Assembly (NCBI GenBank): GCA_018060845.1 | Contig: JAGOVG010000001.1 | Coordinates: 152,740-216,739 of the forward strand | Origin: Candidatus Woesebacteria bacterium | GTDB lineage: Bacteria > Patescibacteriota > Microgenomatia > UBA1400 > UBA12108 | Reading direction: 5' to 3' | DNA length: 64,000 bases | Shown here: positions 3,136-64,000 of the stretch, piece by piece | How the letters are laid out: each line of letters starts with the position of its first letter | How positions within the stretch are numbered: the stretch's first letter is position 1 | Notes under the pieces: generated by a model | Databases searched by the model: none | What the model saw: only the letters and a program-made list of their open reading frames with translations | What the model was told of the DNA's origin: nothing | Program-made: the position numbers and the translations under genes

Positions 3136-3137
3136 GA

Positions 3138-3419
3138 TCAGAAGCCAAAGTTGAATTGAGTAACTGGTGCACCAGTGAGATTTTCGATTAAGAGTAAGAT
3201 CAGCCAGGAGACAATGGCAAGGACCAGGCCACCAACCGCATAGCCAACAGTTTGTTTGCCACCCTGCAACCCCTTAGGGTCTCCACCACTGGTTAAGATC
3301 TTAAAACCACCAACTAAGATCATGATAAAAGCTACCATGCCAATTAGTGGGATCATGGCGGATAGAACGTTGCCAAAGTAATCTGGTAGTTGGTCGAGGC
3401 GTGCGGCGTCTGAGTCCAT
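3138..3419 (-). CDS. Pilin-like small membrane protein (VirB2/TrbC-like, two TM)
   Basis: 93 aa. TM1 (LIGMVAFIMILVGGFKILTSGGDPKG), polar loop, TM2 (VGGLVLAIVSWLILLLIENL). It sits 2 nt upstream of the 956-aa gene, so the two are probably an operon. Confidence 0.6.
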   Translation of the reverse strand: MDSDAARLDQLPDYFGNVLSAMIPLIGMVAFIMILVGGFKILTSGGDPKGLQGGKQTVGYAVGGLVLAIVSWLILLLIENLTGAPVTQFNFGF

Positions 3420-14176: not shown

Positions 14177-15937
14177 ATGACAACTATAAATGCCCATAGT
14201 TTGGTAGGTAGCCCCACAAGAACCTGTTGGTCACAAGCGCAAAGTTTGAGTAATTCTGAACAATCGATCTCGTTGGTTTTGATGCTCAAAATACAAGGTG
14301 AAGAGGGAGTAGTTGAACTGTCCTCGATTGGTGGGGCAATATTTGAAAAATTTCATGAATATGGTGAGGTTACCCACACACCGCTAGAATGGCGGGACTT
14401 TGTGGACTCTGAGCTATCGGAGGTGTCCCCATCGGTCGAGCGGTCGATGATCATCGCGTGTTTGTACGAGGAGAATGTGTGGATCTTTGGGAGTGGTGAG
14501 GTCAGCGCTCAGCTATATCGTAATGAGCAGTTTGTAACTCTTACAACAGGCGAGAACTGGAGCCAAGGATTGACAGGCAAGATGCTCAATAACGACATCC
14601 TAATCCTCGGGACTAAGTGGGGGATGGAGGTAAGTCAATCTGATGGTGTTAAAGAATCTATTAGTACTGGGCTCGATAACTTTGTTGAGACATTAGCCCC
14701 CTTGATTCATCAAAAAACTGGTCAAGCCGAGATTGCTCTGTCTCTTCTAGGCTTCTCTAGTTCGGAGGTAGTTGTACCAACAGAAACTAATAGTGTAAAA
14801 GAAAAATTTCCCGAAATAGTGGTGCGGCGAATGAGGGAGGAGCCTAGACGATTTAATTTGATTGTTGGCTCTATCGTAAGTATTGGTTTAATCGTCTTAA
14901 TCATCACCGGAGCCATGGTTAGGATCGAGAAAAAAGCTAAGAGCGAGTATGAAGAGACGATCACTCGATCAACTGCGATGATTACCGAAGCAGAGAGTGT
15001 GGCGCAGAGCAACCCAGAGCGAGCCAAGATCCTACTTTCACAGAGTATAGAGCTCTTGGAGATTTATTTAGGGACTGAGCCAAAAGCAAATTACCAAAAG
15101 GAAGCGGTTGCAGCACTGTCGATCATTAAGAGCAAAGAACAGGAGATACTCAGGGTAAGGGGTATAGCACTAGAGCCTACACTTGAGCTATCCATACTCG
15201 CTGACGGACTAAAAGCAGATACCTTGGTAAATGATACTCTCGGATCGATGTATTTTTGGGACGATAGTAGTCGAAGTATTGTAGGTGTATCGACCAAGGA
15301 TCTCTCCAAAGTGAGTTTTAGTGTTGAGAATGAGCGATTTATTAGACCATTTAGCGTTATCGATAGTAAATACGTGGGTCTGGCGAGCGGTGGGGTGTGG
15401 AGTGGGAGTAAAGATGAGCAAAAAATAGTGATTCCAACTGATGAAGAATGGGGTGAAATAAGCCAGATCGCAACATTCGGGAACAATATTTATTTGTTAG
15501 ACAGAGGACAGGGAGAGATCTGGAAGTATGCGGCGACAGATGCAGGATATGGTGAACGCAAACGCTGGTTTGGGGCGGGCATAATACTAGACCTATCAAA
15601 AGTCGTGGACTGGGTGGTAGATGGCGATATTTGGCTACTAACTAGTAGTGGAAAGCTGGAGAAATACTCTCGTGGTGCGCCAGCTAAATTTGCCATGACA
15701 GGATTCCCCAGCAACAGTGACACGGGTGGATTTTTGGACCCTATTGCCGTGTCCATAGTTGATGAAAAAGTGTATGTGCTAGAGCGTGGAGCAAAGAGGG
15801 TGGTGGCACTTGATATAAGTGGTCAATACTTAGAGCAGTATGTGTCTGAGGACTTTGGGCGAGCTAGTGACATTATGGTGTATGGGGGGAAGGGGTATGT
15901 GCTCGTGGATAATGTGGTGAAAGAGTGGGGACTGTAG
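14177..15937 (+). CDS. Hypothetical membrane-anchored protein (586 aa) with a central TM and a C-terminal repeat or beta-propeller-like region
   Basis: TM at LIVGSIVSIGLIVLIITGAMV. Repeated YLLDRG/YVLERG strands near the C-terminus. Confidence 0.45.
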   Translation: MTTINAHSLVGSPTRTCWSQAQSLSNSEQSISLVLMLKIQGEEGVVELSSIGGAIFEKFHEYGEVTHTPLEWRDFVDSELSEVSPSVERSMIIACLYEENVWIFGSGEVSAQLYRNEQFVTLTTGENWSQGLTGKMLNNDILILGTKWGMEVSQSDGVKESISTGLDNFVETLAPLIHQKTGQAEIALSLLGFSSSEVVVPTETNSVKEKFPEIVVRRMREEPRRFNLIVGSIVSIGLIVLIITGAMVRIEKKAKSEYEETITRSTAMITEAESVAQSNPERAKILLSQSIELLEIYLGTEPKANYQKEAVAALSIIKSKEQEILRVRGIALEPTLELSILADGLKADTLVNDTLGSMYFWDDSSRSIVGVSTKDLSKVSFSVENERFIRPFSVIDSKYVGLASGGVWSGSKDEQKIVIPTDEEWGEISQIATFGNNIYLLDRGQGEIWKYAATDAGYGERKRWFGAGIILDLSKVVDWVVDGDIWLLTSSGKLEKYSRGAPAKFAMTGFPSNSDTGGFLDPIAVSIVDEKVYVLERGAKRVVALDISGQYLEQYVSEDFGRASDIMVYGGKGYVLVDNVVKEWGL

Positions 15938-16523: not shown

Positions 16524-16756
16524 ACCAAGCGTTTGTTACGAAACGCAAATCCAGAGTGGGTTTTAAGATATTTTTCAAAATTTAAAGCTAGTATTTTAGA
16601 TACGAACGAAGAGTAATATATGAGCTTGATCGGACGCAACTTGCGAGTTTGGGGAACATTACCTAACATATGATCATTGATTCTAGTCTTTAGATCAGAC
16701 GAGAATCCTGTGTAATAAGTATTATCTGAGAGTTGAAGAATGTAGGTGTAGAACAT
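16520..16756 (-). CDS. GIY-YIG nuclease family protein (YhbQ/UPF0213-like)
   Basis: FYTYILQLSDNTYYTGFSSDLKTRINDHMLG...TRKLRPIKLIYYSSF. Confidence 0.6.
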   Translation of the reverse strand: MFYTYILQLSDNTYYTGFSSDLKTRINDHMLGNVPQTRKLRPIKLIYYSSFVSKILALNFEKYLKTHSGFAFRNKRLV

Positions 16757-17339
16757 TAGTGTAATTATAGCCCCACTCCGCATAAAGCTTCGCTAGGGAC
16801 ACACTTCGCCTGACATATAGAATCATGTTCCATGAATTAGTTTTGTGTGTGGCCGTGCCACTGCGTAGCTCCGTAGGAGCGAAGTGTGGAGACGGAGGGC
16901 AGTGAGCCCTCGTCCGGAGCGAGTTTTTAACACCATCTACATACATAGATAAATTTATTTTTTAACCTCTCAACTATTAGGTATTTATCAGACCAAGATA
17001 GTTTTGAGGGTAGTCGTTTATATGGCCACGCCTGACTAGGGCGGGGTTATGGCTCATGTTTGTTTCCACCTACACCATTGCCATGAGCGACTCGGGTGTA
17101 AATGTCCTGGTTAAGCTCTATTACCCGCGAGGGTGTAGTTACCAAACAAGGAAGCAATAGCGCGATCTGCACTCTCTAAGAGAGAAACAAATTTACTATA
17201 TGCTGTCTGTGCAGTTTTAGTGACAGATATTTTTTGACGCTGTTTTACGACTTCTCTCGTCAAAGTCGGTATGCAGATGTTAAAGAACTGTCGCCTCGTC
17301 AAAGCAAGACGTCCCCAATAGGCTGTATTATAGCATAGT

Positions 17340-17903
17340 ATGGCAATATTAGACTGGATATATCCGAAAAAATGCCTGGGATGTGGGGAGAGTGGTAGGT
17401 ATATTTGCCTGACCTGTCAGAGAGGGATCCAGAGGAGGGGCGAGAGCCTAAAATACACTGGAATAGTGCGAAAGACAATAAAGCAGGTTAAGTACCGTGG
17501 GAGCTACGACCTGGTGCATGAACTAGTTGAGTTGTGGGCGCCCATGAGGCCACTGGGCTTGGTTATAGTGACTAGTGTGCCCATGTGGGAGGGAAAGAAG
17601 AGAGTCAGGGGTTATAACCAAGCTGAGTTAATAGCCCGAGAAGTGGCTAGTCTATGGAGTGTGGAGTATCGTGAGCTACTAAACAGGAGTAGAGAGACTA
17701 AGCCGATGTACGGACTAGATAAACAAGCTCGTCTAGCTAATATTAGTGGGGCATTTGAAGTTAAATCACAAATCATTACAAATCAAAAAACCATTGTTTT
17801 GATTGACGATGTTTGGACGAGCGGGGCGACGATGCAGGAGTGTATGAGAGTACTCAAGCGTGCGGGATGGGAAAGGGTAATACCGATATCGCTTGCTAGC
17901 TAG
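17340..17903 (+). CDS. ComF-family phosphoribosyltransferase
   Basis: N-terminal CxxC..CxxC (CLGCGE..CLTCQ). NISGAFEV. PRTase motif IVLIDDVWTSGATM. Confidence 0.7.
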   Translation: MAILDWIYPKKCLGCGESGRYICLTCQRGIQRRGESLKYTGIVRKTIKQVKYRGSYDLVHELVELWAPMRPLGLVIVTSVPMWEGKKRVRGYNQAELIAREVASLWSVEYRELLNRSRETKPMYGLDKQARLANISGAFEVKSQIITNQKTIVLIDDVWTSGATMQECMRVLKRAGWERVIPISLAS

Positions 17904-17909
17904 AGTAAT

Positions 17910-18551
17910 TTATTCTTCGCTTGGCATGGTAGCGCCATATTTTTTGGCCATTTCTTCTAGAGCTTTCATATCGTATTCACCACTAGCGTTGGGTGAGGGG
18001 ATGGCCTTGGTCATCTCAGAGAGATCGGTGAATTTGACTGATTGAGGTGGGACGAAATCGGAGTCGGAGGCAGCTGACTTGTCGCAGTTTATGGTGTAGC
18101 CGTCTTCTTTTAGGGTGTCAAAGCCAGATTCGGAGTTAAAGTCGGGAGTTTCTGGAGTGTTTTTACTGTATTCTTTGGCGGATTCGGCCATTTTTTTGGC
18201 TTCCTCTTCGGTAGGGATTGCCATTTTGGTGCCTACTTCTTTTCCGTCTTCCCACATGTAGAGATACTTTTCGTCGTTGAGCATAAACGAAGTCATTTTG
18301 GTGGACTCGACCTGGGTAAGCATGGTTGCTTTCATCTTTTTACCTTTGATCAGGTACTCTGTTTTTTCTTCACCTTTGGTCATGGTGCAGAGAGTGGGGT
18401 TGCCTGAGGCGATAGCTGCTGCCCACTGAGTGGCCTCTTTGACTTGCTCTACAGCAGATTGGGGAGCGTCTGTTTTTTTATTGTTCATATAAAAATAGCC
18501 ACCAAAGGCTAAGAGGATAGCGACTAGTACTAAGGGGAGTGCTTTTTTCAT
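17910..18551 (-). CDS. Secreted or membrane-anchored hypothetical protein
   Basis: Signal/TM MKKALPLVLVAILLAFGGYFY, then a Lys/Glu-rich region. Confidence 0.4.
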   Translation of the reverse strand: MKKALPLVLVAILLAFGGYFYMNNKKTDAPQSAVEQVKEATQWAAAIASGNPTLCTMTKGEEKTEYLIKGKKMKATMLTQVESTKMTSFMLNDEKYLYMWEDGKEVGTKMAIPTEEEAKKMAESAKEYSKNTPETPDFNSESGFDTLKEDGYTINCDKSAASDSDFVPPQSVKFTDLSEMTKAIPSPNASGEYDMKALEEMAKKYGATMPSEE

Positions 18552-18563
18552 GAATGCCTTTCT

Positions 18564-18953
18564 TTAAACGTTAAGTTTATAGACAATTAGGACTGTGAGC
18601 ATGGTTAGGATGCCACCCCAGAACATGTCGGCGAGAGCGAGACTCCAGGTATAGCCGCGCATAACTGCGAGATTGGTTAGGTCGTAGGTAGCATATGCGG
18701 CAAACCCAAAGAGGAAGGACTGGGTGAGGAGGGTGTTGAGAGGTAGTTTGTTTGCTAGGGCTGGCATGAGGATGAGGTAGAGGAGAGTAGAGAGATAAAT
18801 TATATAAAATAAGCCGGCAGCGAGTAGATTGGGTGTAGCGGTCATAAGGTGGGGGACGACCTTTTTCATCCAAGGCGAGGCGACCTGGGTGATCCAGATA
18901 CTGTCGATAGCGAGGAATGCAACGAGGGATTGGAGCAATAACTTGATGAACAT
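18564..18953 (-). CDS. Hypothetical membrane protein
   Basis: Four hydrophobic helices, 129 aa. Confidence 0.4.
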   Translation of the reverse strand: MFIKLLLQSLVAFLAIDSIWITQVASPWMKKVVPHLMTATPNLLAAGLFYIIYLSTLLYLILMPALANKLPLNTLLTQSFLFGFAAYATYDLTNLAVMRGYTWSLALADMFWGGILTMLTVLIVYKLNV

Positions 18954-18971
18954 TAAATATACTATAGCAGA

Positions 18972-19448
18972 TTAGTATGCTCTGGGTGGGAGCTGGCGAG
19001 GACCTAGAGGTGAGAGAGTTAGCGAGCAGGCTTGGTTATAAATGAGCTCGATTTTTGAACTTAGGTCATCGATATTTATTCCTTGCGACTCAAGGCTCGT
19101 TACAACTTCTTTAATCCCTGCATCGTAGTCATTTTTGTGTTTGGTCATGATATCTTTCCAGACTATATTACTTAGTGGAGAGAGGAGTGAATGGTCGTAT
19201 GGGAGATCACCTCGTAGCATGAGGAGGGTAAGCATAGGATAGCTGATGCTGTGAGTATAGTAGGCAGTGTTATCATTGCTCATGATCTGCATGGTATGGG
19301 GATCGTATTTGACTGTGTAGAACTTGCCGCGGCTAGAGCTAAATAGTTTTAGCTCAGTATCACTCACTAGTTCATAACGTTTGTCGGCAATGGCGGTTAG
19401 AGCCTCGTAGATTTTGCTGATGTGGGGAGCGGCGTAGGGTTGAGACAT
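18972..19448 (-). CDS. Hypothetical protein
   Basis: 158-aa ORF with no recognisable motif. Confidence 0.35.
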   Translation of the reverse strand: MSQPYAAPHISKIYEALTAIADKRYELVSDTELKLFSSSRGKFYTVKYDPHTMQIMSNDNTAYYTHSISYPMLTLLMLRGDLPYDHSLLSPLSNIVWKDIMTKHKNDYDAGIKEVVTSLESQGINIDDLSSKIELIYNQACSLTLSPLGPRQLPPRAY

Positions 19449-19478
19449 AGGGATATAATAATCTAAGAAGGGATATTA

Positions 19479-19736
19479 ATGAAGAACGATAAATCCAATC
19501 TGTTACTAATAAGCGATGAAAAGAAGCGAGGGGCGGTAGAGGCGATTATTGCGTTTTATAAGCGGGAACGAGATGAAGAGATTGGAGTGATAGCAGCCGA
19601 AGAAATATTGGAGTTCGTGATCGATTTGGTAGGTAAAGACATTTTTAATAAAGGAATAGATGAGACAGTCCGACTCGTACAGGACAGGCTCTCGGGCGTG
19701 TGGATGGATGTTGAAGCAATTGTGAAGAAGGGCTAG
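19479..19736 (+). CDS. DUF2164-like small protein
   Basis: 85 aa, pattern EEILEFVIDLVGKDIFNKGIDE. Confidence 0.4.
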   Translation: MKNDKSNLLLISDEKKRGAVEAIIAFYKRERDEEIGVIAAEEILEFVIDLVGKDIFNKGIDETVRLVQDRLSGVWMDVEAIVKKG

Positions 19737-20033
19737 TTATAGATAGTGGGTATTATCCTCTGATTCCGCTGGGATCATGATGTTGAGAAATATTAGATCA
19801 GAGTTTGAGTCATTAACACCCTCGTGTACCGTACCCCTTTTGCGAAAGTAAAACTTGCCTTGTTTGTGAGTTTTGGTATTTCCGCGAAACACATACTCAA
19901 TCTCAGTCGCATCATGATAATGAGGCTTTTCGACCCCACCTGGAACCATAAAGTAGATGTAAATTGAAATAGGCTTAATATCTAGGATTTTTATAGATTT
20001 GCGGTAGGGAGTAGTAGTCATGTTTGGCTGCAC
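19737..20033 (-). CDS. Cupin-domain protein
   Basis: HYHDATEIEYVFRGN is a cupin motif 1-like sequence. Confidence 0.5.
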   Translation of the reverse strand: MQPNMTTTPYRKSIKILDIKPISIYIYFMVPGGVEKPHYHDATEIEYVFRGNTKTHKQGKFYFRKRGTVHEGVNDSNSDLIFLNIMIPAESEDNTHYL

Positions 20034-20051
20034 GATATCTAATGTAGGAAC

Positions 20052-20546
20052 CTATTTTACTGGTTTCATGAGCTCAATCCCGTACTCGTCAAAACCAAAT
20101 TTTTTGTAAAGATTTAGGGCTGGACTGTTTCTATAAAGGACTCCAAGCCCCACGTAAGTAAATCCAAGTTCTCTGGCTCGAGCTTCGGCAGTTTTAAGTA
20201 ATTCTGTAGCAATGCCTTGATTACGAAAACGACTATCGACATAAATAGAATTGATTCGGAGATATTTTTTGTAGGTGTTTTCGATTTCGTCTTCAGAACT
20301 AAACTCAATAAATCCAGATGGGACCCCTTCTGTAAAAGCAATATAGTATTCATAACTACTATTTTCCTGACTAGTTTTTACGTATTCTTGAAACATTAGC
20401 TCAGCCTGTGCTTCCGTGATATCTCGATTAGATTCGAATTCGTGTTCACCCATCTGCAAACCAAGATAAAAAAATTTGATGATATCGAAAAGTTCGGGAG
20501 TGGGGTAGGTGATTTTCTTAATAGTTGTTGCCATAAGGAGAAACAT
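20052..20546 (-). CDS. GNAT family N-acetyltransferase
   Basis: RFRNQGIATELLKTAEARARELGFTYVGLGV...LNLYKKFGF matches the acetyl-CoA binding motif. Confidence 0.75.
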   Translation of the reverse strand: MFLLMATTIKKITYPTPELFDIIKFFYLGLQMGEHEFESNRDITEAQAELMFQEYVKTSQENSSYEYYIAFTEGVPSGFIEFSSEDEIENTYKKYLRINSIYVDSRFRNQGIATELLKTAEARARELGFTYVGLGVLYRNSPALNLYKKFGFDEYGIELMKPVK

Positions 20547-20552
20547 ACTGGA

Positions 20553-20636
20553 TTTATAAGTTACCCTGGACTTTTTATAGTTTATTTATAAACTGCGGGG
20601 TACTATATACGATGTTATAACCTATCTTTCTAATGA
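20553..20636. repeat. About 85-bp leader repeat, copy 1, upstream of the GNAT gene
   Basis: ttataagttaccctggactttttatagtttatttataaactgcggggtactatatacgatgttataacctatc. About 85% identical to 21201-21280. Confidence 0.6.
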
Positions 20637-20646
20637 TGAAATTAGT

Positions 20647-21132
20647 TTAGCGAGATTGTAATACTCTATCGAGAATTGCGTGATAGTTAAACATATCATG
20701 GGAGCTACTTCTCTTGTCTATTTCTGCTTGAGTAATCATTTCTGTCGCCATCATTAGCCAAAGTGCATCAGGAATTTTGCTTTTTTCTAGTGCTTGCATT
20801 GCATTCCAGATGTCTACTTCAACAAAAGCTGTGGGTTCTATTGGTAGGTTAGTCGTGGTGAATTCTTGGAGTTTAAAATCTGGGTACCCGAGTTGTCTAG
20901 GGATAAATGTTTTAACTTTCTTTATAAACGATTTACTCACACCAGTTTCATATTTCGCAAAACTAACAGCTGCTTGAGCTGCTATTGTCCAAAAATCTCC
21001 GTCTACATATAGGAATTTTTCTGGGTTATCGTATTGTGAGTGGTCGGTAATTGGTTGATAAAATATAGAGAGACGAAAGTCTCTTCCTTGAGCGATAGGA
21101 TAGCGATGATTACAATCTACTGTATTTGTCAT
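20647..21132 (-). CDS. Hypothetical protein (161 aa), cassette-like gene
   Basis: ORF with no recognisable motif. Preceded by repeat copy 2. Confidence 0.4.
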   Translation of the reverse strand: MTNTVDCNHRYPIAQGRDFRLSIFYQPITDHSQYDNPEKFLYVDGDFWTIAAQAAVSFAKYETGVSKSFIKKVKTFIPRQLGYPDFKLQEFTTTNLPIEPTAFVEVDIWNAMQALEKSKIPDALWLMMATEMITQAEIDKRSSSHDMFNYHAILDRVLQSR

Positions 21133-21200
21133 ATTGTTCCTCCTTATGGCAGTGTGTATATTGTAGCAGGGTAGGCAAGAGAGGTTTTTTATAAATAGGT

Positions 21201-21280
21201 TATAAGTTACTCTGGTGTATTTATAGTTGATTTATAAACTGCGGAGAACTATATCCGATGTTGGAACCTATTTTTTGAAA
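21201..21280. repeat. About 85-bp leader repeat, copy 2
   Basis: ttataagttactctggtgtatttatagttgatttataaactgcggagaactatatccgatgttggaacctatttttt. Confidence 0.6.
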
Positions 21281-21804
21281 TAAATACTGCAAATCATGTC
21301 ATTTTTCCTAAATGGGCGAGAGGAAGTAATGATTGTGTAATTGGGATCTGGTGAGTGAGGAAATGTTTCAAGAATGGCAGTGATATCATCATAATGATTG
21401 ATTAACTGTTGTAAATTGTTTACCTGGAAGGGGAACCATTTTTTGAAGTTGCTTTTTTTGCGTAAATTCAAGAAAGCTCCGACAGTTGCATCTTCTGGAC
21501 ACATAAATCTTGTGTCAAAATCTCTAATCTTCAGAACATATTCTAGTCCTTGTATTCCATATAGTACGTCTACGGTACCTTTCTCCGGAATTTCTATTTG
21601 TGCAGAGACTCCTCCTTCAAAAACACTGATGATTTTGGTTTTTATTCCTGGAATAGTGGAGGCTTCTTTTGAGAATTTTTGTTCAGCATATTGATCTTGG
21701 AATGCAAGGACGACTATGACAATCGCCACTAAACCTATAAACGCGGCGAGCAGTAAAATACCAATTTTCTTAAGTATTGATTTGTATTTACCTGGTTTTT
21801 TCAT
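21271..21804 (-). CDS. Membrane-anchored hypothetical protein (177 aa)
   Basis: Start set at MKKPGKYKSILKKIGILLLAAFIGLVAIVIVV. The longer ORF would run across both tRNA genes and is rejected. Confidence 0.5.
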
Positions 21805-21805
21805 A

Positions 21806-21842
21806 GTTTGCTTGTAAACCACTCTGGGTGTTTTATAATCTG
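21806..21842. repeat. Leader repeat, copy 3 (partial), abutting the 3' end of tRNA-Ser
   Basis: ttgtaaaccactctgggtgttttataatctgcgg aligns with the 5' half of copies 1 and 2. Confidence 0.45.
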
Positions 21843-21928
21843 CGGAGACGGTGAGATTTGAACTCACGCGTGTCTTGCGACACAAGAGGTTAGCAACCTC
21901 TCGCAATGGGCCACTATGCGACGTCTCC
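21843..21928 (-). tRNA. tRNA-Ser (anticodon GCU), class II with a long variable arm
   Basis: Minus strand reads GGAGACG-tc-gca..tgc-g-AGAGG-ttGCTaa-CCTCT, a long variable arm, then GTGAG-TTCAAAT-CTCAC-CGTCTCC-g. CCA is not encoded. Confidence 0.8.
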
Positions 21929-21969
21929 TTTGATATTCTCTGAATGATTGAAATTATAGCATTGAACTG

Positions 21970-22054
21970 CGGAAGGGAAGGGATTCGAACCCTTGGTGAG
22001 TTTCCCCACGGAGGTTTAGTAAACCTCTGCACTAGGCCACTATGCGACCCCTCC
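21970..22054 (-). tRNA. Class II tRNA (Ser-like) whose anticodon loop reads ttACTaa, an apparent ACU anticodon, which is non-canonical
   Basis: Minus strand reads GGAGGGG-tc-gca..tgc-a-GAGGT-ttACTaa-ACCTC, a 16-nt variable arm, then AAGGG-TTCGAAT-CCCTT-CCCTTCC-g. Confidence 0.6.
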
Positions 22055-57395: not shown

Positions 57396-57581
57396 GATTT
57401 TGATCTAGAAGCGCTAGATTGACCAACAACTCTCGAAGTTCTAGAGTGAATGTAGGTTTAACAATTTAACGAGATATTGGATAAGGAAGTAGGGTGAAAT
57501 ACCCTCACTGTGCCGCAACGGTTAAAGTCCGGAACTTGCCAATATTCTCGCCTTATTACGCATCCTCCGCGCGAGAGGATG

Positions 57582-58889
57582 AAGGAGAGTTTTGTGGGTA
57601 GATTTTTAGAAGTATTTGATCATCAAGTTGGCGTTGAAACATTTAAGATTTCGAACGCTGATGGAACTCTCGCTGCGACTGAGTCAAACTTGCATCTTTG
57701 GTATAGCCAGGTAGCAAATAGAGATACTAAGGATGTTAATAGGTTTGGTGAGAATAAAGGCGAGAGCGAAAAGATGTTTTCCTTATGGTTGTATTACTGG
57801 ATGATAGACCACGAAAGTTTGGCAACAAATGATTTAGAGAGCAGGCTATATATTGACGGAATGACATATCTAGCAGAGAGAGTATTCGAGTTGCCTTACA
57901 ACGAACTTAAACTACATTTTACTGATGAAGAAATATATGGAGTTGGGTTTGGAGACAAAGGAGTACTGAATATCTGTCGAGACGGAGTTGACTTAAGGAG
58001 AGCAGAGCAGGAGTCTACTAATAGAGTAATGCATGAAGGATTAGGGATGTGGAACTTAGTACAACTCTTGCAGACACTTAAGGTTGGTGAAAGTGCAATG
58101 TTGATTAGTCCTCCTGATCCCGACGATCCCAATATGGGCGGGTACAACTTGATTTATTTGTACGAGAAAACTAGCGAAAATAATCTAAGAATGGGGGTTA
58201 TTACAGATAATGTGAATGACATTGAATACTGGAGAAATAATGCCAGTACTTTTTCAAGATACAGAAACGACTTTAGTCAATATGATCACAATCAATTTGT
58301 AGCACACCCATTTATTACGAAGCAGAGTTTAGTTGAAATAAAGTCGACTATTTTACATACGGATGATAAATATGTGCCTGATTGGGCGCTCGAGAAATTA
58401 CGCAAAGTCATCCCCTCAGTAAGAAAAGCTCTCTATGAAGGAAATGTAAAGCGGGCAGAAGAGCTTTTTAACGCGTTCAAAATAGCTACTACTGCCAAAC
58501 TTCTCAATAAAGATAAAGATGTAAACATGGAAAGACTTGTCGACGATATTGAGTATTTCATGGTCATCTCAGGATGGTATATCCATAATGGAGGTGATAA
58601 ATATATAAACAAAAAGACAGGATGTAGCTTAGATAGAATTAACCTGGGAGATCGAGACCTATTTAATAACCAATGGGATAGATACACTAAGTTTGACATG
58701 AATTCGGTTGGAACGGATAAACCTGAGGACGAGACATATAGTTTTGACATAAGGGGAAAATGTGTAGGTAGTTGTTTTGATGAGGTTTTAGAAGATGGAA
58801 CCAAGGTTAAACACGAAAGAGATCTCGGTCCATGTCACCTATGTAGAGAGTGTGATGCAGAGGCGAAGAAGAACTCCCAGACTAGCTAA
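57582..58889 (+). CDS. Hypothetical protein (about 435 aa)
   Basis: Long ORF. Start uncertain (57510 or the ATG at 57582, which sits inside a hairpin). C-terminal Cys cluster CHLCRECD. Confidence 0.4.
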   Translation, partial: KESFVGRFLEVFDHQVGVETFKISNADGTLAATESNLHLWYSQVANRDTKDVNRFGENKGESEKMFSLWLYYWMIDHESLATNDLESRLYIDGMTYLAERVFELPYNELKLHFTDEEIYGVGFGDKGVLNICRDGVDLRRAEQESTNRVMHEGLGMWNLVQLLQTLKVGESAMLISPPDPDDPNMGGYNLIYLYEKTSENNLRMGVITDNVNDIEYWRNNASTFSRYRNDFSQYDHNQFVAHPFITKQSLVEIKSTILHTDDKYVPDWALEKLRKVIPSVRKALYEGNVKRAEELFNAFKIATTAKLLNKDKDVNMERLVDDIEYFMVISGWYIHNGGDKYINKKTGCSLDRINLGDRDLFNNQWDRYTKFDMNSVGTDKPEDETYSFDIRGKCVGSCFDEVLEDGTKVKHERDLGPCHLCRECDAEAKKNSQTS

Positions 58890-59004
58890 AGTAATTGCCC
58901 CTATTTGATACAGTCATTGCTAGTTGACGACCCCTGCCAGTAGGGGGTACGGTAGATAGGCCCTACTATATGTAGGGTTTTGGTTCTAAAAGGAGCTACC
59001 AGAT

Positions 59005-59463
59005 ATGCAATGTCCATACTGCCATCACGAGGATACTTCCGTCCTCGAGTCGCGTATCACAGCCGAAGGTGGTGCGATGAGGCGCAGACGTGAGTGTGTT
59101 AAGTGTAGTAAGCGTTTTACCACCTACGAGCGAGCTGAGGGAGTAGATATTAGAGTGGTCAAAAAGACAGGCAAGGTAGAGGACTTTGATAGAGAGAAGC
59201 TAAAAAGAGGGGTGATGAAGGCTACCTGGAAACGTCCAGTCTCTATGGAGCAGATCGAGGCAATGGTTGACGAGATAGAAAGGATCCTTAGGCGTAAGAC
59301 TACAACTGAAGTTAGGAGTTGGGAGGTAGGTAATCTTGTGATCAATAGATTAAAAAAGATTGATCCACTGGCATATTTACTATTTGCTAGTGTGTACAGA
59401 GAATTTGAGAACTTGTCTGATTTTGAAGAAGAAATTAAAAAACTAAAGGAACCTGCCCAATGA
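59005..59463 (+). CDS. nrdR: Transcriptional repressor NrdR (zinc ribbon plus ATP cone)
   Basis: MQCPYCHHEDTSVLESR...RRRECVKCSKRFTTYE. Confidence 0.85.
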   Translation: MQCPYCHHEDTSVLESRITAEGGAMRRRRECVKCSKRFTTYERAEGVDIRVVKKTGKVEDFDREKLKRGVMKATWKRPVSMEQIEAMVDEIERILRRKTTTEVRSWEVGNLVINRLKKIDPLAYLLFASVYREFENLSDFEEEIKKLKEPAQ

Positions 59464-61481
59464 AAATCACCAAACTGAACAAAAATGCTGCTGCTATTAT
59501 GGTAAATCGCTATAGCTTGAGGGATGACTCAGGGCACCCTGTTGAGTCACCTGCAGAGATTTTGATGCGTACTGCTAGAGTAGTCGCAGAAGCCGAGAAC
59601 AACTACAGAAGCAGTGGTGACACCTCGATGGAAGTGAGAGAAAAGTTTTTTGAGATGTTATACGAGATGAGGTTTGTGCCAAATGGTCGTACTATGGCTA
59701 ACGCAGGGACTAAGTATGGCCAGCTAGCAAACTGTTTTGTATTGCCGGTTGAAGATGATCTAGGCAAAGGAACTGACTCGATATTTTCTGTGCTTCGCAA
59801 GGCTATCCTAACACTGCAAACTGGCGGGGGAGTAGGTTTTTCTTTTGGGCGGATAAGGCCGAAAGAGGCATCAATTAGCACAACCAAAGGTAAAGCAACT
59901 GGAGCTGTATCTTTTATCAAGGTGTATGACACAGCTTTTTGGGTAATCGGCCAAGGTGGGGGTAGGCGTAGTGCGGCTATGGCTGTCCTACCTGTATGGC
60001 ATCCAGACATTTACGAATTTGTGAGATGTAAAGCGACAGAGGGACAGATTACCAACTTTAATATCTCAGTTGGGATAACAGATGAGTTTATGACGGCAGT
60101 TGCCAAGGATGAGGATTTTTCACTGCGCCACCCTGAAAATGGAGAACTATATCGAATGGTTCCGGCACGAGAATTATTTGCGGAGATTGTAAAGTTTGCT
60201 CATAAAAATGGCGAACCAGGTGTACTGTTTCTTGATGCTGCCAATAGAAGTAATCCTGTTCCACATCTATACAAACTCGAGGCAACAAACCCATGTGGAG
60301 AACAGTTCTTGGGTCCATACGAAAACTGCTGTTTGGGGAGTTTGAATCTTAGAGAACATGTAAAGTTAGCAAAAAATGATAAGTTAAAAGTTAAAAGTTA
60401 TATTGTGGATTGGGAAAAGTTAGCAGAGACGGTGGAATTATCGGTTAGATTTTTGGACAATGTGGTCGATGCTAATAAATATGTCTCGGCAGTACCAGAG
60501 CTCGAAGAAGCTGCCCACAAAGTGCGCCGCATTGGTTTGTCTGTGATGGGGTTATCAGACATGATGTATATGACCAATGTTCGATATGGTTGTGATAAAG
60601 GCCAGGAGCTGGCATCACAACTCATGGAGTTTATACGCTACCACTCGATGAGAGCTTCGATAGAACTCGCTCGGGTTAGAGGACCATTCCCTGGTATAAA
60701 CGGCAGTATTTACGATCCACAAAAAGTAACCTGGACAGTACCAAAGCCAAGAGTCGTTCATAAATCTGACTTTGGAAGACCAGAACTAGATTGGAAACTA
60801 ATTACAAAAGGATTAAAGTCTAACGGGATTCGAAATGGGGCTCAGACTACAGTTGCTCCAACCGGAAGCATTGCCACTATATCAGGACTTGAGGGGTATG
60901 GATGTGAGCCAGTATTTGCATTATCTTATATCCGCCACACGAGAGAGGGTGCAGAAAAAGAAGGCAAAGAATGGCGTGAAATGTACTACGAGAGTAGTCT
61001 TTTTGAATCTGCGATGAAGCGAGAGGGCATGAGTAAAAGCCAGAGGAACCAACTGTTTGCCGAAGTAAGAGACAATGGAGGGAGTTTGAAGGGAATAAAA
61101 GGTGTACCCAAACAGATTGCTGACACTTATGTAGTGTCATCTGACCTTAGTGTCGAAGAACACGTCCGGATGCAGGCCGTGATGCAGGCATGGATTGATA
61201 ACTCGATCAGTAAGACCATTAACTTCCCCAGTACTGCGACAGTTGACGAAGTGGCAGAGGCTTATCAACTAGGCTGGAAGCTGGGACTTAAGGGCATGAC
61301 AGTCTATGTAGAGGGGTCAAGAGAGCAGGTAGTACTAGAGAAGAAGAGTGCTCCATTTGAAACAAAAGAAGACAAGCAAGTAACATCTGAGGAGCTGTGT
61401 CCAGAATGTGGAACACCCATGCGGAGAGAAGAGGGGTGTTCTACTTGCCCTAGTTGTGCGTACTCTAAATGTGATAAATAG
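59460..61481 (+). CDS. nrdJ: Class II (adenosylcobalamin-dependent) ribonucleotide reductase, paralog a (no ATP cone)
   Basis: [44 protein letters not shown] and a C-terminal CPECG...CSTCPSC zinc ribbon. Confidence 0.8.
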
Positions 61482-61490
61482 GACATTTAT

Positions 61491-63380
61491 ATGACAAAAC
61501 CAAAAATAATTGAACCAAAACTGACGAAAAATGCGCAAGAAGTAGCTAAGAAGCGTTATTTGCGGACAGATATGAATGGAGTTGTTGTTGAGACTCCGGG
61601 AGAAATGTTGTGGCGAGTAGCCTATCACATGGCCAAACCAGAAGTTGCCTGGGGGACTAATGGCATAGTGATGGAGACAGCCGCTCGGTTTTATGAGCGA
61701 ATGGCGTCTCTCAAGATGGTATGTGCTGGCAAGGCAATGTTTGAGGCGGGGAACCCTGGGGGGACCGGACAATTATCTTCTTGTTTTGTGTTGCCAATAG
61801 AGGATTCGATCGGCAAGATTTTTAAGACTTTGGGTGATGCGGCGGTTGTACATAAAAATAACGGGGGTACTGGCTTTAACTTTAGCAAAATTAGGCCACA
61901 CGGGGATAAGGTAAAGAACGTGCCGGGTGCATCATCGGGACCGGTTGATTTTATCAAGGCGTACTCGGCAGCACTGGCTCAGATTTTGCAGGGCGCAAAA
62001 AGACAGGGCGCCAACATCGCAATTTTAAATGCGAACCACCCGGACATAGAGGAGTTTATTGATCTAAAAGCACAGGACGGGACGATTAAAAACTTTAATG
62101 TGTCGGTGGGTGTAACTGACTCATTTATGGAGGCAGTGGAAGGTGACAAATATTGGAATTTGGTAAACCCAAGAAATGGAGAGGTAGTTAAGAAAATTAA
62201 GGCAAAAACACTATTTAATAAGATTGCAGAAGCTGCGTGGAGGACGGGCGACCCAGGTCTTATGTTCTTGGACAATACAGAGCGTGGCAACACTGTTCCT
62301 AATTTTGGCAAACTAGATGCCACTAATCCGTGTGGGGAGATTGCACTGTTTCCTTATGAATCATGTAACTTAACTAGTATTGATTTGGCGAGACACCTTA
62401 AGAAGAGTAAGAAGGGGTATGAGATAGACTACAAAGAGCTTGGTGAGACAGTGCGACTAGGGGTTAGATTCCTCGACAACATGATAGAAGTGAATGCGTA
62501 CCCAGTCTCTGAGATTGAGGCAACGGTTAAAAATGGTAATCGGAGGATTGGACTAGGTGTCATGGGATTTGCGCATGTACTGTACAGGATGGGGATTCCT
62601 TACAACAGTAGCGACGCAGTAAAACTAGCCAAGGAAATGTCCAAATTTATATACGAGACTGCAGCTGAAATGTCATCTGAGCTAGCTGAAGTGAGAGGAA
62701 ACTTTAACAACTGGGATCTCTCAATCTACCCTGCAAAAGGACAGCCGATGCGCAACTGCGCGGTGACGATGATTGCGCCTACTGGGACGATTTCGATCCT
62801 AGCGGACACGAGTAGTGGAATAGAGCCAGTTTTTAGTTTGGTCACGAAGCGCAGAACTTTTTATGAAGATGATAAGTCTAACCACTCAACAAAAGAGCTT
62901 CTCATGGTTGACCCTGTTTTTGAAGAATATATTGGAAAGAGAAAAGATATTCTAGAACAAGTAGCAAATGGAGATTACTCAGGACTAACTCCTTTGGAGC
63001 GAAAGTTGTTTGTCACTACACACCAGATAGAACCCGAGTGGCATGTGAAGATACAAGCGGCGTGGCAGAAGTATTTTGATAACTCGATTAGCAAGACAGT
63101 TAATTTTGGACACGAGGCGAAGGTTGAAGATGTTAAGACTGTATATATGCAGGCATGGAAGCTGGGATGTAAGGGTGTCACGATTTATCGAGACGGGAGT
63201 AAGGGAGATCAAGTTTTGAGTACTGTAAAATCGGACAACCAGAATACTCAGAGTGTCGGTGACTCAGAACAATCTGAGAGCCAAAGTGAAGAGTTGGTAT
63301 GTCCTGAGTGTGGTGGGAAGCTACACAAACAAGATGGCTGCTCAAAGTGTATTGATTGTGGATATAGCGTATGCGGATAA
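61491..63380 (+). CDS. nrdJ: Class II ribonucleotide reductase, paralog b (no ATP cone)
   Basis: SSCFVLPIEDS, NPCGEIALFPYESCNLTSIDL and a C-terminal CPECGG...CSKCIDC. Its linker carries CGGACAACC repeat copy D. Confidence 0.8.
   Translation: MTKPKIIEPKLTKNAQEVAKKRYLRTDMNGVVVETPGEMLWRVAYHMAKPEVAWGTNGIVMETAARFYERMASLKMVCAGKAMFEAGNPGGTGQLSSCFVLPIEDSIGKIFKTLGDAAVVHKNNGGTGFNFSKIRPHGDKVKNVPGASSGPVDFIKAYSAALAQILQGAKRQGANIAILNANHPDIEEFIDLKAQDGTIKNFNVSVGVTDSFMEAVEGDKYWNLVNPRNGEVVKKIKAKTLFNKIAEAAWRTGDPGLMFLDNTERGNTVPNFGKLDATNPCGEIALFPYESCNLTSIDLARHLKKSKKGYEIDYKELGETVRLGVRFLDNMIEVNAYPVSEIEATVKNGNRRIGLGVMGFAHVLYRMGIPYNSSDAVKLAKEMSKFIYETAAEMSSELAEVRGNFNNWDLSIYPAKGQPMRNCAVTMIAPTGTISILADTSSGIEPVFSLVTKRRTFYEDDKSNHSTKELLMVDPVFEEYIGKRKDILEQVANGDYSGLTPLERKLFVTTHQIEPEWHVKIQAAWQKYFDNSISKTVNFGHEAKVEDVKTVYMQAWKLGCKGVTIYRDGSKGDQVLSTVKSDNQNTQSVGDSEQSESQSEELVCPECGGKLHKQDGCSKCIDCGYSVCG
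63231..63290. repeat. CGGACAACC-family repeat, copy D, in-frame inside nrdJ paralog b
   Basis: tcggacaaccagaatactcagagtgtcggtgactcagaacaatctgagagcc, encoding SDNQNTQSVGDSEQSES. Confidence 0.6.
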
Positions 63381-64000
63381 ATAAAATTCTTAAAAGAGAT
63401 GGTAGGGAAGTGGAGTTCTCGTTGCCAAAACTATCGGATGCGATCTGGAAGGCAGGGCGAGAAACTCACGAATTTGATGAAAAAGAAGCCAAGCGCCTAG
63501 CGGAAATAACAAGTGCTCTAGTTGAGAAGTCGCTAAAAGATAAAGAGATAGTAACGGTTGAAAAAGTGCAGGATTTTGTAGAGCAAGTCCTCATGGCGGC
63601 AGGACATTATCAGACAGCAAAGGCCTACATCCTGTATCGCGCAGCGAGGAGTGAGGAGAGGCGAGTAGAGCGGATTATTGGCGTTAAGGATGATCTTGAT
63701 CTTTCCCCTAACCAACTAAAAGTGTTGCGTAATCGATATTTACTAAAAGATGAAGATGGCAGAGTGATTGAGACGCCGTCGGAAATGTTTAGAAGAGTAG
63801 CCAAGAACCTGGCAATTGTTGAAAAGACAAATAAGAGAAAGAAAATAGAAGACGATTTTTATGAGGTAATGGCTCGTTTGGAGTTTCTGCCTGCCGGTAG
63901 AACTCTCAATAATGCGGGCACTCCCCAATCACAGCTGGCTAACTGTTTTGTATTGCCTGTTGAAGATTCGATGGAGGGGATATTTGACGCGGTTAAGTGG
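63371..64000 (+). CDS. nrdJ: Class II ribonucleotide reductase, paralog c, with an N-terminal ATP cone; partial, continues past the window end
   Basis: MRINKILKRDGREVEFSLPKLSDAIWKA is an ATP cone. ...[28 protein letters not shown]. Confidence 0.7.
   Translation, partial: MRINKILKRDGREVEFSLPKLSDAIWKAGRETHEFDEKEAKRLAEITSALVEKSLKDKEIVTVEKVQDFVEQVLMAAGHYQTAKAYILYRAARSEERRVERIIGVKDDLDLSPNQLKVLRNRYLLKDEDGRVIETPSEMFRRVAKNLAIVEKTNKRKKIEDDFYEVMARLEFLPAGRTLNNAGTPQSQLANCFVLPVEDSMEGIFDAVKW

Follow-up and report, generated by a model that had tools for sequence, protein, structure and literature searches.

Three complete class II ribonucleotide reductase genes in a predicted NrdR-controlled operon of a Candidatus Woesebacteria genome

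The analyzed stretch of DNA, in the following called the window, comprises 64,000 nt of a Candidatus Woesebacteria genome (GCA_018060845.1, contig JAGOVG010000001.1, positions 152,740 to 216,739). At its end lies a gene for the transcriptional repressor NrdR, followed by three tandem genes that each encode a complete class II ribonucleotide reductase (RNR; NrdJ). We refer to these three genes and their products as paralogs A, B, and C. An initial annotation, made from the sequence alone, had assumed a reduced genome, which agrees with the assignment to Candidatus Woesebacteria and with the placement of the related loci within Microgenomates/Patescibacteria. The genes are arranged as follows:

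59005..59463, + strand: nrdR, 152 aa, repressor with zinc ribbon and ATP cone (TIGR00244, 186.7 bits, cut-off 124.65; PF22811 and PF03477)
59460..61481, + strand: nrdJ paralog A, 673 aa, Ribonuc_red_lgN and lgC domains (TIGR02504 NrdJ_Z, 613.6 bits, cut-off 399.95)
61491..63380, + strand: nrdJ paralog B, 629 aa, Ribonuc_red_lgN and lgC domains (TIGR02504 NrdJ_Z, 617.5 bits, cut-off 399.95)
63371..64000, + strand: nrdJ paralog C, first 210 of 755 codons, starting with the ATG at 63371 and running past the window end

The stop codon of nrdR and the start of A share 4 nt, and the last 10 nt of B are shared with the start of C. The part of C within the window encodes an ATP cone and then lgN, the RNR all-alpha domain (Pfam). 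The full-length protein of 755 aa was read from contig JAHZTO010000034.1 of assembly GCA_020049755.1 (226,719 bp; locus L001, 11881-14148), to which B was matched by its exact sequence, and scores 724.1 bits against NrdJ_Z (cut-off 399.95). The claim of the initial annotation that nrdR is followed by three complete class II cores is therefore borne out, with TIGR00244 and NrdJ_Z matches above cut-off throughout. Downstream of C and beyond the window follow maf (TIGR00172, 157.8 bits; cut-off 117.15) and then a gene for a protein resembling adenosyltransferases of the CobA/CobO/BtuR family (cobO; Pfam PF02572). The NCBI protein records of A, B, and C (MBP9702281, MBP9702282, and MBP9702283) all carry the product name adenosylcobalamin-dependent ribonucleoside-diphosphate reductase. 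Pairwise identities are 37% for A and B, 38% for A and C, and 46% for B and C, close to the approximately 35-45% estimated initially. A scan for internal promoter or terminator signals within the cluster yielded nothing above chance. From this arrangement, we predict that nrdR-A-B-C-maf-cobO is transcribed as a single operon that is autorepressed by NrdR.

To judge the class and completeness of the paralogs, we used an alignment of 112 cores from the window and 75 related species loci. All three exceed the NrdJ_Z cut-off. With the class I model TIGR02506 (NrdE/NrdA), the scores were 326, 326, and 378 bits for A, B, and C, so that its cut-off of 341 was passed by C alone, far under the NrdJ_Z score of this protein. 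The finger loop signature is NPCxE in class II and NLCxE in class I enzymes (PMC9669993), and the sequence TNPCGE is found in A, B, C, and every ortholog; for the three paralogs, NPCGE had been claimed at the outset. The positions of the finger loops and of the C-terminal tails that lie within the window are:

60288..60302, + strand: finger loop NPCGE of A, in which Cys279 is the predicted thiyl radical site
62325..62339, + strand: finger loop NPCGE of B, with Cys281
61398..61472, + strand: C-terminal six-Cys zinc-finger/redox tail of A, CPEC-x9-CSTCPSC-x4-C
63300..63374, + strand: C-terminal six-Cys zinc-finger/redox tail of B

The catalytic cysteines of the paralogs align with C134, C322, and C333 of the Thermotoga maritima enzyme. 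Throughout the orthologs of A (16), B (24), and C (18), we found conserved the NPCGE loop, the xCFVLPxED segment with the first reducing cysteine and the effector-site aspartate, the second reducing cysteine, which follows the radical cysteine at a distance of 11 residues, SKT(I/V)N, and the phosphate loop APTG. The second reducing cysteine stands in the context ENCCLGS, ESCNLTS, or DACNLGS. The ANCFVLP region reported initially is indeed present in all three proteins, but B carries SSC where ANC is expected (Cys1 region LSSCFVLPIEDS). The motif T(I/V)Y(R/V)(D/E)GS holds a single tyrosine and not the Tyr-Tyr pair of class I radical transfer, and no NrdB- or NrdG-like gene was detected in the 22-kb locus. 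The zinc ribbons noticed earlier at the ends of A and B correspond to six-Cys tails, and C, as read on L001, ends in a matching one. Their common pattern, CxxC-x9-CxxCxxC-x4/5-C, is that of NrdJ with a cysteine-rich domain (CRD-type), in which such a tail acts as a zinc-finger/redox shuttle that re-reduces the active site (PMC5704485). Judged by these residues, A, B, and C are predicted to be catalytically competent, adenosylcobalamin-dependent class II reductases.

Several simpler readings of three adjacent cores were examined and rejected. A split enzyme of the NrdJa plus NrdJb type had been dismissed before, rightly, as each of the three open reading frames (ORFs) combines lgN, lgC, and tail. 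The genes are uninterrupted within the window, free of the inteins and frameshifts for which a check had been proposed. A pseudo-enzyme among the paralogs, which had been offered as an option, finds no candidate: catalytic and redox cysteines, NPCGE, the effector aspartate, and APTG are kept in all three groups, and the ratios of nonsynonymous to synonymous substitution rates (dN/dS) are 0.015-0.03. An assembly duplicate is contradicted by the 37-46% identity, by an independent read-level assembly (L002) that contains all three genes, by the same order in 24 species loci, and again by the dN/dS values.

The paralogs differ from each other in the ATP cone and in the loops that contact nucleotides. 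The relevant elements are:

63383..63652, + strand: ATP cone of C, residues 5-94 (PF03477, E 2.4e-22), with the KRDG motif within ILKRDGREVEF
59679..59690, + strand: apical phosphate-binding loop of A, P74-N-G-R77, by PDB alignment to T. maritima P-N-S-P
61722..61733, + strand: apical loop of B, C78-A-G-K81, by alignment; G-K invariant in 24/24 orthologs
63890..63901, + strand: apical loop of C, P174-A-G-R177, by alignment

Among the reductases, the ATP cone is confined to the C group, and A and B begin with the lgN domain. The cone had initially been called NrdR-like; its restriction to the third paralog stands (PF03477), but BLASTP detected no similarity between it and the cone of NrdR, and the two share the Pfam domain family only.

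According to Schell et al. 2021 (PMC8365446), the apical loop reads P-N-S-P in enzymes reducing diphosphates and P-A-G-R in those reducing triphosphates, the Ser-Pro or Gly-Arg pair being decisive. The PAGR of C fits the triphosphate rule P-A/S/G-G-R. The PNGR of A, found in 16/16 loci and in 119/120 related protein clusters, aligns residue by residue with P-N-S-P of T. maritima; it has the Gly-Arg pair, but asparagine at the second position as in the diphosphate motif. Relative to the triphosphate motif, the CAGK of B has lysine for arginine and cysteine for proline. Among the 150 cluster representatives nearest to B in a library of 1.84 billion proteins, 130 possess PNSP or PNTP. By the Ser-Pro/Gly-Arg rule, all three paralogs are predicted to act on ribonucleoside triphosphates.

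Loop 2 reads ILQGAKRQGAN in B and VMQGGKKRGAN in C, next to an outgroup consensus of IKQGGKRRGAN, and A has its own distinct version; in B, furthermore, NGGTGF replaces GGGTGF. We compared the paralogs over those 157 columns of the alignment in which 183 other NrdJ cores show a conservation of 85% or more. Fixed differences were found in 2 of these columns for C, 11 for B, and 21 for A, clustered in the apical loop, loop 1, and loop 2.

Upstream of nrdR, a region of 115 nt was examined for regulatory elements. An NrdR site consists of two partly palindromic 16-bp boxes with a 15-16 bp linker, in which C4, A6, A8, T9, T11, and G13 are conserved (PMC13584703). The candidates in this region are:

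58924..58929, + strand: putative -35 hexamer TTGACG, a consensus match only; the same hexamer lies upstream of nrdR in ~20 related loci
58931..58946, + strand: predicted NrdR box 1, CCCCTGCCAGTAGGGG, with 3/6 conserved positions (C4, T11, G13) and a degenerate center
58963..58978, + strand: predicted NrdR box 2, CTACTATATGTAGGGT, with 6/6 conserved positions

The linker between the two boxes is 16 bp, and box 2 is the sole match in the window at three or fewer mismatches. The critical positions C4 and G13 are both kept in the degenerate box 1. The pair is maintained upstream of nrdR in ~20 related loci, and more distant loci show textbook boxes, for example ACACTATAGGTAGTGT. Because the box pair lies at the promoter and is conserved in relatives, we predict that the operon is autorepressed by NrdR at high dATP.

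To assess how widely this arrangement occurs, we scanned one genome per species and found a B-type gene at 31 loci. In 24 of them, the three cores stand in the same order; the other 7 are cut by contig ends, and no counter-example to the three-core order was encountered among the 31. The usual gene order is nrdR-J-J-J-maf-cobO. By record titles, the loci belong to Microgenomates, Woesebacteria, Beckwithbacteria, Collierbacteria, and the 'Patescibacteria group'; some third-party annotation (TPA) records among them are plainly mislabelled as Pseudomonadales. The median junctions are -4 nt for nrdR to A (overlapping in 14/14), 9 nt for A to B, and -1 nt for B to C, and the 10-nt overlap of B and C recurs in 11 loci. 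Gaps of 300-980 nt separate RNR genes in L011, L016, L018, L021, and L035, and gaps ahead of maf or cobO occur in L004, L013, and L025. One guess would be that the inserts between RNR genes in some genomes are free-standing homing endonucleases.

Inteins with LAGLIDADG domains interrupt orthologs of A (L006, L007, L013, L030, L032), B (L029, L030, L032, L053), and C (L019, L025, L027, L030), with all three RNR genes affected in L030. The insertions lie at conserved sites that are classic for inteins, NP|CGE in A and B and GGG|TGF in C. The A-type intein seems to end in ...GYVSRG and not in the usual His-Asn before the +1 cysteine.

In the comparison with the nearest genome, A has a dN/dS of 0.015 and B one of 0.031. 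In more distant pairs dS is saturated and amino-acid identity is still 80-97%; across the same genome pairs, the three paralogs are alike in their rate of divergence. The three genes are thus old and under strong purifying selection. A neighbor-joining tree of 280 cores (571 columns, 100 bootstraps) places A, B, and C each in a clade of its own at 100% bootstrap. Paralog A is sister to a family from Anaerolineae/Chloroflexi, also at 100% bootstrap, whose members have PNSP in 119/119 clusters and a long TSCPD plus zinc-finger tail. Searches for homologs with A and with a Chloroflexi relative returned close orthologs only and were used for the motif counts. Recent tandem duplication, which the initial annotation had suggested checking by phylogeny, was rejected: the clades of the individual paralogs are deep and fully supported, A groups with the Chloroflexi family and not with B or C, and the GC content across the RNR genes matches that of the remaining window. 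Because A is sister, at 100% bootstrap, to a uniformly PNSP family, it very probably gained its Gly-Arg pair secondarily, within a diphosphate-type lineage. A secondary gain is well supported for A only; the Gly-type loops of B and C would have been either retained or regained. In five Beckwithbacteria-like loci (L017, L018, L019, L024, L035), position 1 is taken by a different paralog type, A2, with the three-core layout kept. A2 has a PNSP apical loop and an odd loop 2, INEGSSRRVA, which lacks the usual Gln-Gly.

A different form of the three-core arrangement was found in related Patescibacteria. The best two matches to B in the representative library were two proteins of 1600 and 1351 aa (P0001 and P0002), each containing two full RNR cores. 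Single ORFs of 1351-1600 aa with two complete NrdJ cores are present in L028, L036, L043, L078, and P0001. At the locus level, these double-core ORFs, all with two class II cores, are located at:

9935-14287 in L028
7011-11489 in L036
6856-11259 in L043
6001-10056 in L078

In L028, L036, and L043, which stem from three independent genomes, a 600-aa NrdJ precedes a double-core ORF of 1451-1493 aa; in L078, the order is nrdR, an NrdJ of 720 aa, a double-core protein of 1351 aa (one of the two best matches to B), and cobO. The number of cores in the fusion lineages is hence three as well, the second and third being joined. The catalytic cysteines are kept in all fusion cores. A separate Cys tail is missing from the first core of the fusions, and a single C-terminal TSCPD plus zinc-finger tail is shared. 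The N-terminal fusion core of L028, L036, and L043 bears the signature of B (NGGTGF, FEAG, ILQGxKR), and the tree places it as sister to the B clade at 99% bootstrap. Its fused partner, here called 'c2' type, has CGGA or SGQ loops and is not an ortholog of A or C. The two cores of P0001 are separated by a Ham1 (ITPase) domain. Read as Rosetta-stone fusions, these proteins suggest that B-like cores work physically with another paralog, which would transfer to the window by analogy. Near the double-core operon of L078, we also noted further genes related to the nucleotide pool, one for a dCMP deaminase and, in tandem, two for nucleoside-diphosphate kinases (2847-3218 and 14291-15517).

Directly upstream of nrdR lies another unit, separate from the operon but adjoining it:

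57474..57545, + strand: AdoCbl-II cobalamin riboswitch aptamer (Rfam RF01689, 43 bits, gathering score 36.5, full model 1-81)
57579..58889, + strand: gene for a hypothetical protein of 436 aa with a Cys-rich C-terminus, directly upstream of nrdR

The aptamer lies 34 nt upstream of the ATG of the 436-aa protein gene, and riboswitches of the cobalamin clan occupy the same relative place in L004, L007, L010, and L013. The 436-aa protein has no Pfam or NCBIfam match. Only 8 homologs were found, all uncharacterised; in L004, L010, and L013, this slot is taken by counterparts that evolve fast. Its AlphaFold (AF2) model, with a predicted local distance difference test (pLDDT) value of 49.6, was too poor for a fold search. 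The protein could be a B12-acquisition or B12-sparing factor.

Some further features of the region were recorded. On L001, positions 16526-21890, ~3-8 kb past the window end, encode a DUF8128/TraG-like ATPase, a TrmB-like regulator, small unannotated genes, and a tyrosine integrase, which suggests that an integrated mobile element borders the RNR locus. Over the whole window, GC skew is positive in each 2-kb bin (0.04-0.28) and the cumulative skew climbs steadily, a pattern that fits a location on one replichore with genes mostly on the leading strand. A dip in GC content (0.374) at 20001-22000 coincides with tRNA genes. Two adjoining tRNA-Ser genes were identified on the minus strand at 21969-22054 and 21842-21928; according to ARAGORN, one has the usual anticodon GCT, the other ACT, which is unusual in bacteria. 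A transfer-messenger RNA gene at 16884-17316 on the minus strand (RF00023, 87.6 bits, full length) was missed by ARAGORN.

How can three complete reductases in one operon be explained? With odds that we consider a little better than even, they are co-expressed, individually active class II RNRs with divided regulatory and substrate roles. Since the paralog-specific changes in the apical loop, loop 1, loop 2, and the cone are fixed, sub-functionalisation, one of the options named in the initial annotation, is the best supported of these. The operon would then supply deoxyribonucleotides through three co-expressed AdoCbl-dependent reductases. C would be a near-canonical enzyme and, via its ATP cone, the sole paralog under on-off control by dATP and ATP. 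A and B would operate without this brake, and their altered loop 1, loop 2, and apical loops would let them take different nucleotides and respond to different steering effectors, and A would have reached the triphosphate state secondarily from a diphosphate-type ancestor. The cofactor would be made by CobO, and the nucleoside-triphosphate pyrophosphatase Maf would keep the pool of triphosphates in check. Action on triphosphates would fit both the operon partner Maf and the Ham1 domain of the fused protein, as both are nucleoside-triphosphate pyrophosphatases. A number of points weigh against this explanation. If all three enzymes reduce triphosphates, phosphate level cannot separate them. The Ser-Pro/Gly-Arg rule rests on few enzymes, and PNGR and CAGK are outside the motifs listed or tested (PMC8365446). 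More distant orthologs of C carry PAG[G/C] or PGG[T/C] apical loops. The tree was built by neighbor joining and its backbone has ~0% support. The cobO-like protein reaches 118 bits, under the NCBIfam equivalog cut-off of 167.75. With ~86 kb of the genome examined, further RNR classes may be encoded elsewhere. Finally, the fusions with B-like cores point to heteromers over three independent enzymes.

The specificity site of dimeric RNRs is located where the two subunits meet. The paralogs might accordingly pair, for instance B with C or A, into asymmetric dimers in which the two active sites differ and the allosteric sites are shared, and where the ATP cone of C would serve as the single on/off switch of the whole complex. 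We hold such heteromers, which were among the options of the initial annotation, as a tentative but serious possibility. It draws on the natural double-core fusions of related Patescibacteria, with their B-like N-terminal core and one shared tail, on the 10-nt overlap of B and C in 11 loci, which fits stoichiometric co-translation, and on the inter-subunit electron transfer documented for CRD-type NrdJ (PMC5704485). Yet the 'c2' partner in the fusions is no ortholog of C or A, so that the link to the pairs in the window is by analogy, every paralog of the window retains its own full Cys tail and self-sufficient features, and several genomes have 300-980 nt between B and C or between A and B. 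A bolder proposal, which we regard as doubtful, is that DNA-precursor synthesis in Microgenomates and related Patescibacteria depends on a fixed three-core module of mixed heterodimers, with two of the cores fused into one chain in some lineages, in which the nucleotide substrates are split among the cores, partly replacing the allosteric cycle of one enzyme, and in which A represents a natural, functional reversal from diphosphates to triphosphates by a Ser-Pro to Gly-Arg change. Laboratory engineering did not succeed in this direction (PMC8365446), and, if true, the natural reversal in A would overturn the view of a single change in phosphate specificity during NrdJ evolution. Specialisation for cofactors instead of nucleotides seems improbable to us: without own corrinoid synthesis, the cell would have paralogs tuned to adenosyl-cobamides with different lower ligands, scavenged from its host or community. 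The circumstantial case for this is that the locus is B12-centered, with a cobalamin riboswitch upstream, a CobA/CobO-type gene in the operon, and three B12 enzymes, and no other explanation covers all fixed differences outside the nucleotide loops; still, the clearest paralog-specific changes sit in the nucleotide-binding apical loop, loop 1, and loop 2 and not in regions that we know as cofactor contacts, and we found no precedent. Even less probable is mere redundancy, that is, three interchangeable copies raising RNR output. Although the genes are co-transcribed by prediction, catalytically intact, and alike in evolutionary rate, their identity is 37-46%, each clade with 100% support has private invariant motifs even where orthologs are down to 55-60% identity, and position 1 has been swapped for the PNSP-bearing A2 in Beckwithbacteria-like genomes that keep the layout; moreover, dosage duplicates are normally young, similar, and easily lost from reduced genomes. 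That one or more paralogs are pseudo-enzyme regulators, or that the cluster is an assembly artefact, is hardly credible in view of the intact catalytic residues in all three groups, the low dN/dS, the L002 assembly, the deposited records of the three proteins, and the 24 species-level genomes described above.

Ribonucleotide reductase is the sole route to the building blocks of DNA, and normally one enzyme makes all four through an allosteric cycle. Here, a minimal genome keeps three full RNR copies in one operon together with a cofactor-activating enzyme. As this three-core operon is kept across a whole lineage of the candidate phyla, we argue that the copies do different jobs. The paralogs are natural variants of the two-residue switch between diphosphates and triphosphates, including a PNGR loop inside a diphosphate-type family. 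Together with the double-core fusions, they offer test cases for the setting of phosphate specificity and for class II RNR heterodimers. They also raise the question why B12-auxotrophic symbionts stake their DNA synthesis wholly on scavenged B12. Should the copies prove to be ordinary isoenzymes, a useful annotation of a conserved candidate phyla radiation (CPR) operon would still be gained.

The NrdJ family, the head of an nrdR-nrdJ operon, and genomes with several NrdJ are already known. In the literature searched on CPR RNRs, we found no description of a Microgenomates three-core operon, of PNGR or CAGK loops, of a secondary change from Ser-Pro to Gly-Arg, or of double-core fusions. The best match among solved structures is the dimeric NrdJ of T. 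maritima (PDB 1XJE/1XJN/3O0O; E ~1e-107 for B), which shares the core, the equivalents of Cys134, Cys322, Cys333, and Asp141, NPCGE, the layout of loop 1 and loop 2, and a cleavable Cys-rich tail. It is encoded by one gene and has P-N-S-P, whereas the locus described here has three paralogs with Gly-basic loops and one ATP cone. The NrdJd of Stackebrandtia nassauensis (Loderer et al. 2017, PMC5704485), for which electron transfer across subunits is documented, shares the six-Cys C-terminal zinc finger; compared with it, the tails of A, B, and C are short and consist of the zinc finger only, without the long TSCPD/IscU-like part. In Pseudomonas aeruginosa, the genes for NrdJa and NrdJb are adjacent too, but there one enzyme is split into core and tail, while the genes here encode complete cores with tails. 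Frankia and some Alphaproteobacteria possess two NrdJd, only one of which has the Cys-rich domain (PMC5704485), so that paralogs coexist with a hint of tail sharing; in this asymmetry, they recall the double-core fusions and the loci L028, L036, and L043, where the first gene lacks a tail, and not the window. The nrdRJ operon of Streptomyces coelicolor likewise starts with nrdR, followed by nrdJ, and has two 16-bp boxes 15-16 bp apart (PMC13584703). In comparison, three nrdJ genes, maf, and cobO follow nrdR here, and the center of box 1 is degenerate. More than one NrdJ occurs in 1108 of 24,059 GTDB genomes, and differing phosphate specificity was proposed as the reason why the copies are kept (PMC8365446); these genomes were treated there as statistics only, without a description of any operon. 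Within that survey, the window with a Gly-basic pair in all three paralogs falls into the minority class of 113/1108 genomes with triphosphate-type enzymes only, and the Beckwithbacteria-like loci, with a PNSP-bearing A2 and two Gly-type paralogs, fit its mixed pattern (PMC8365446).

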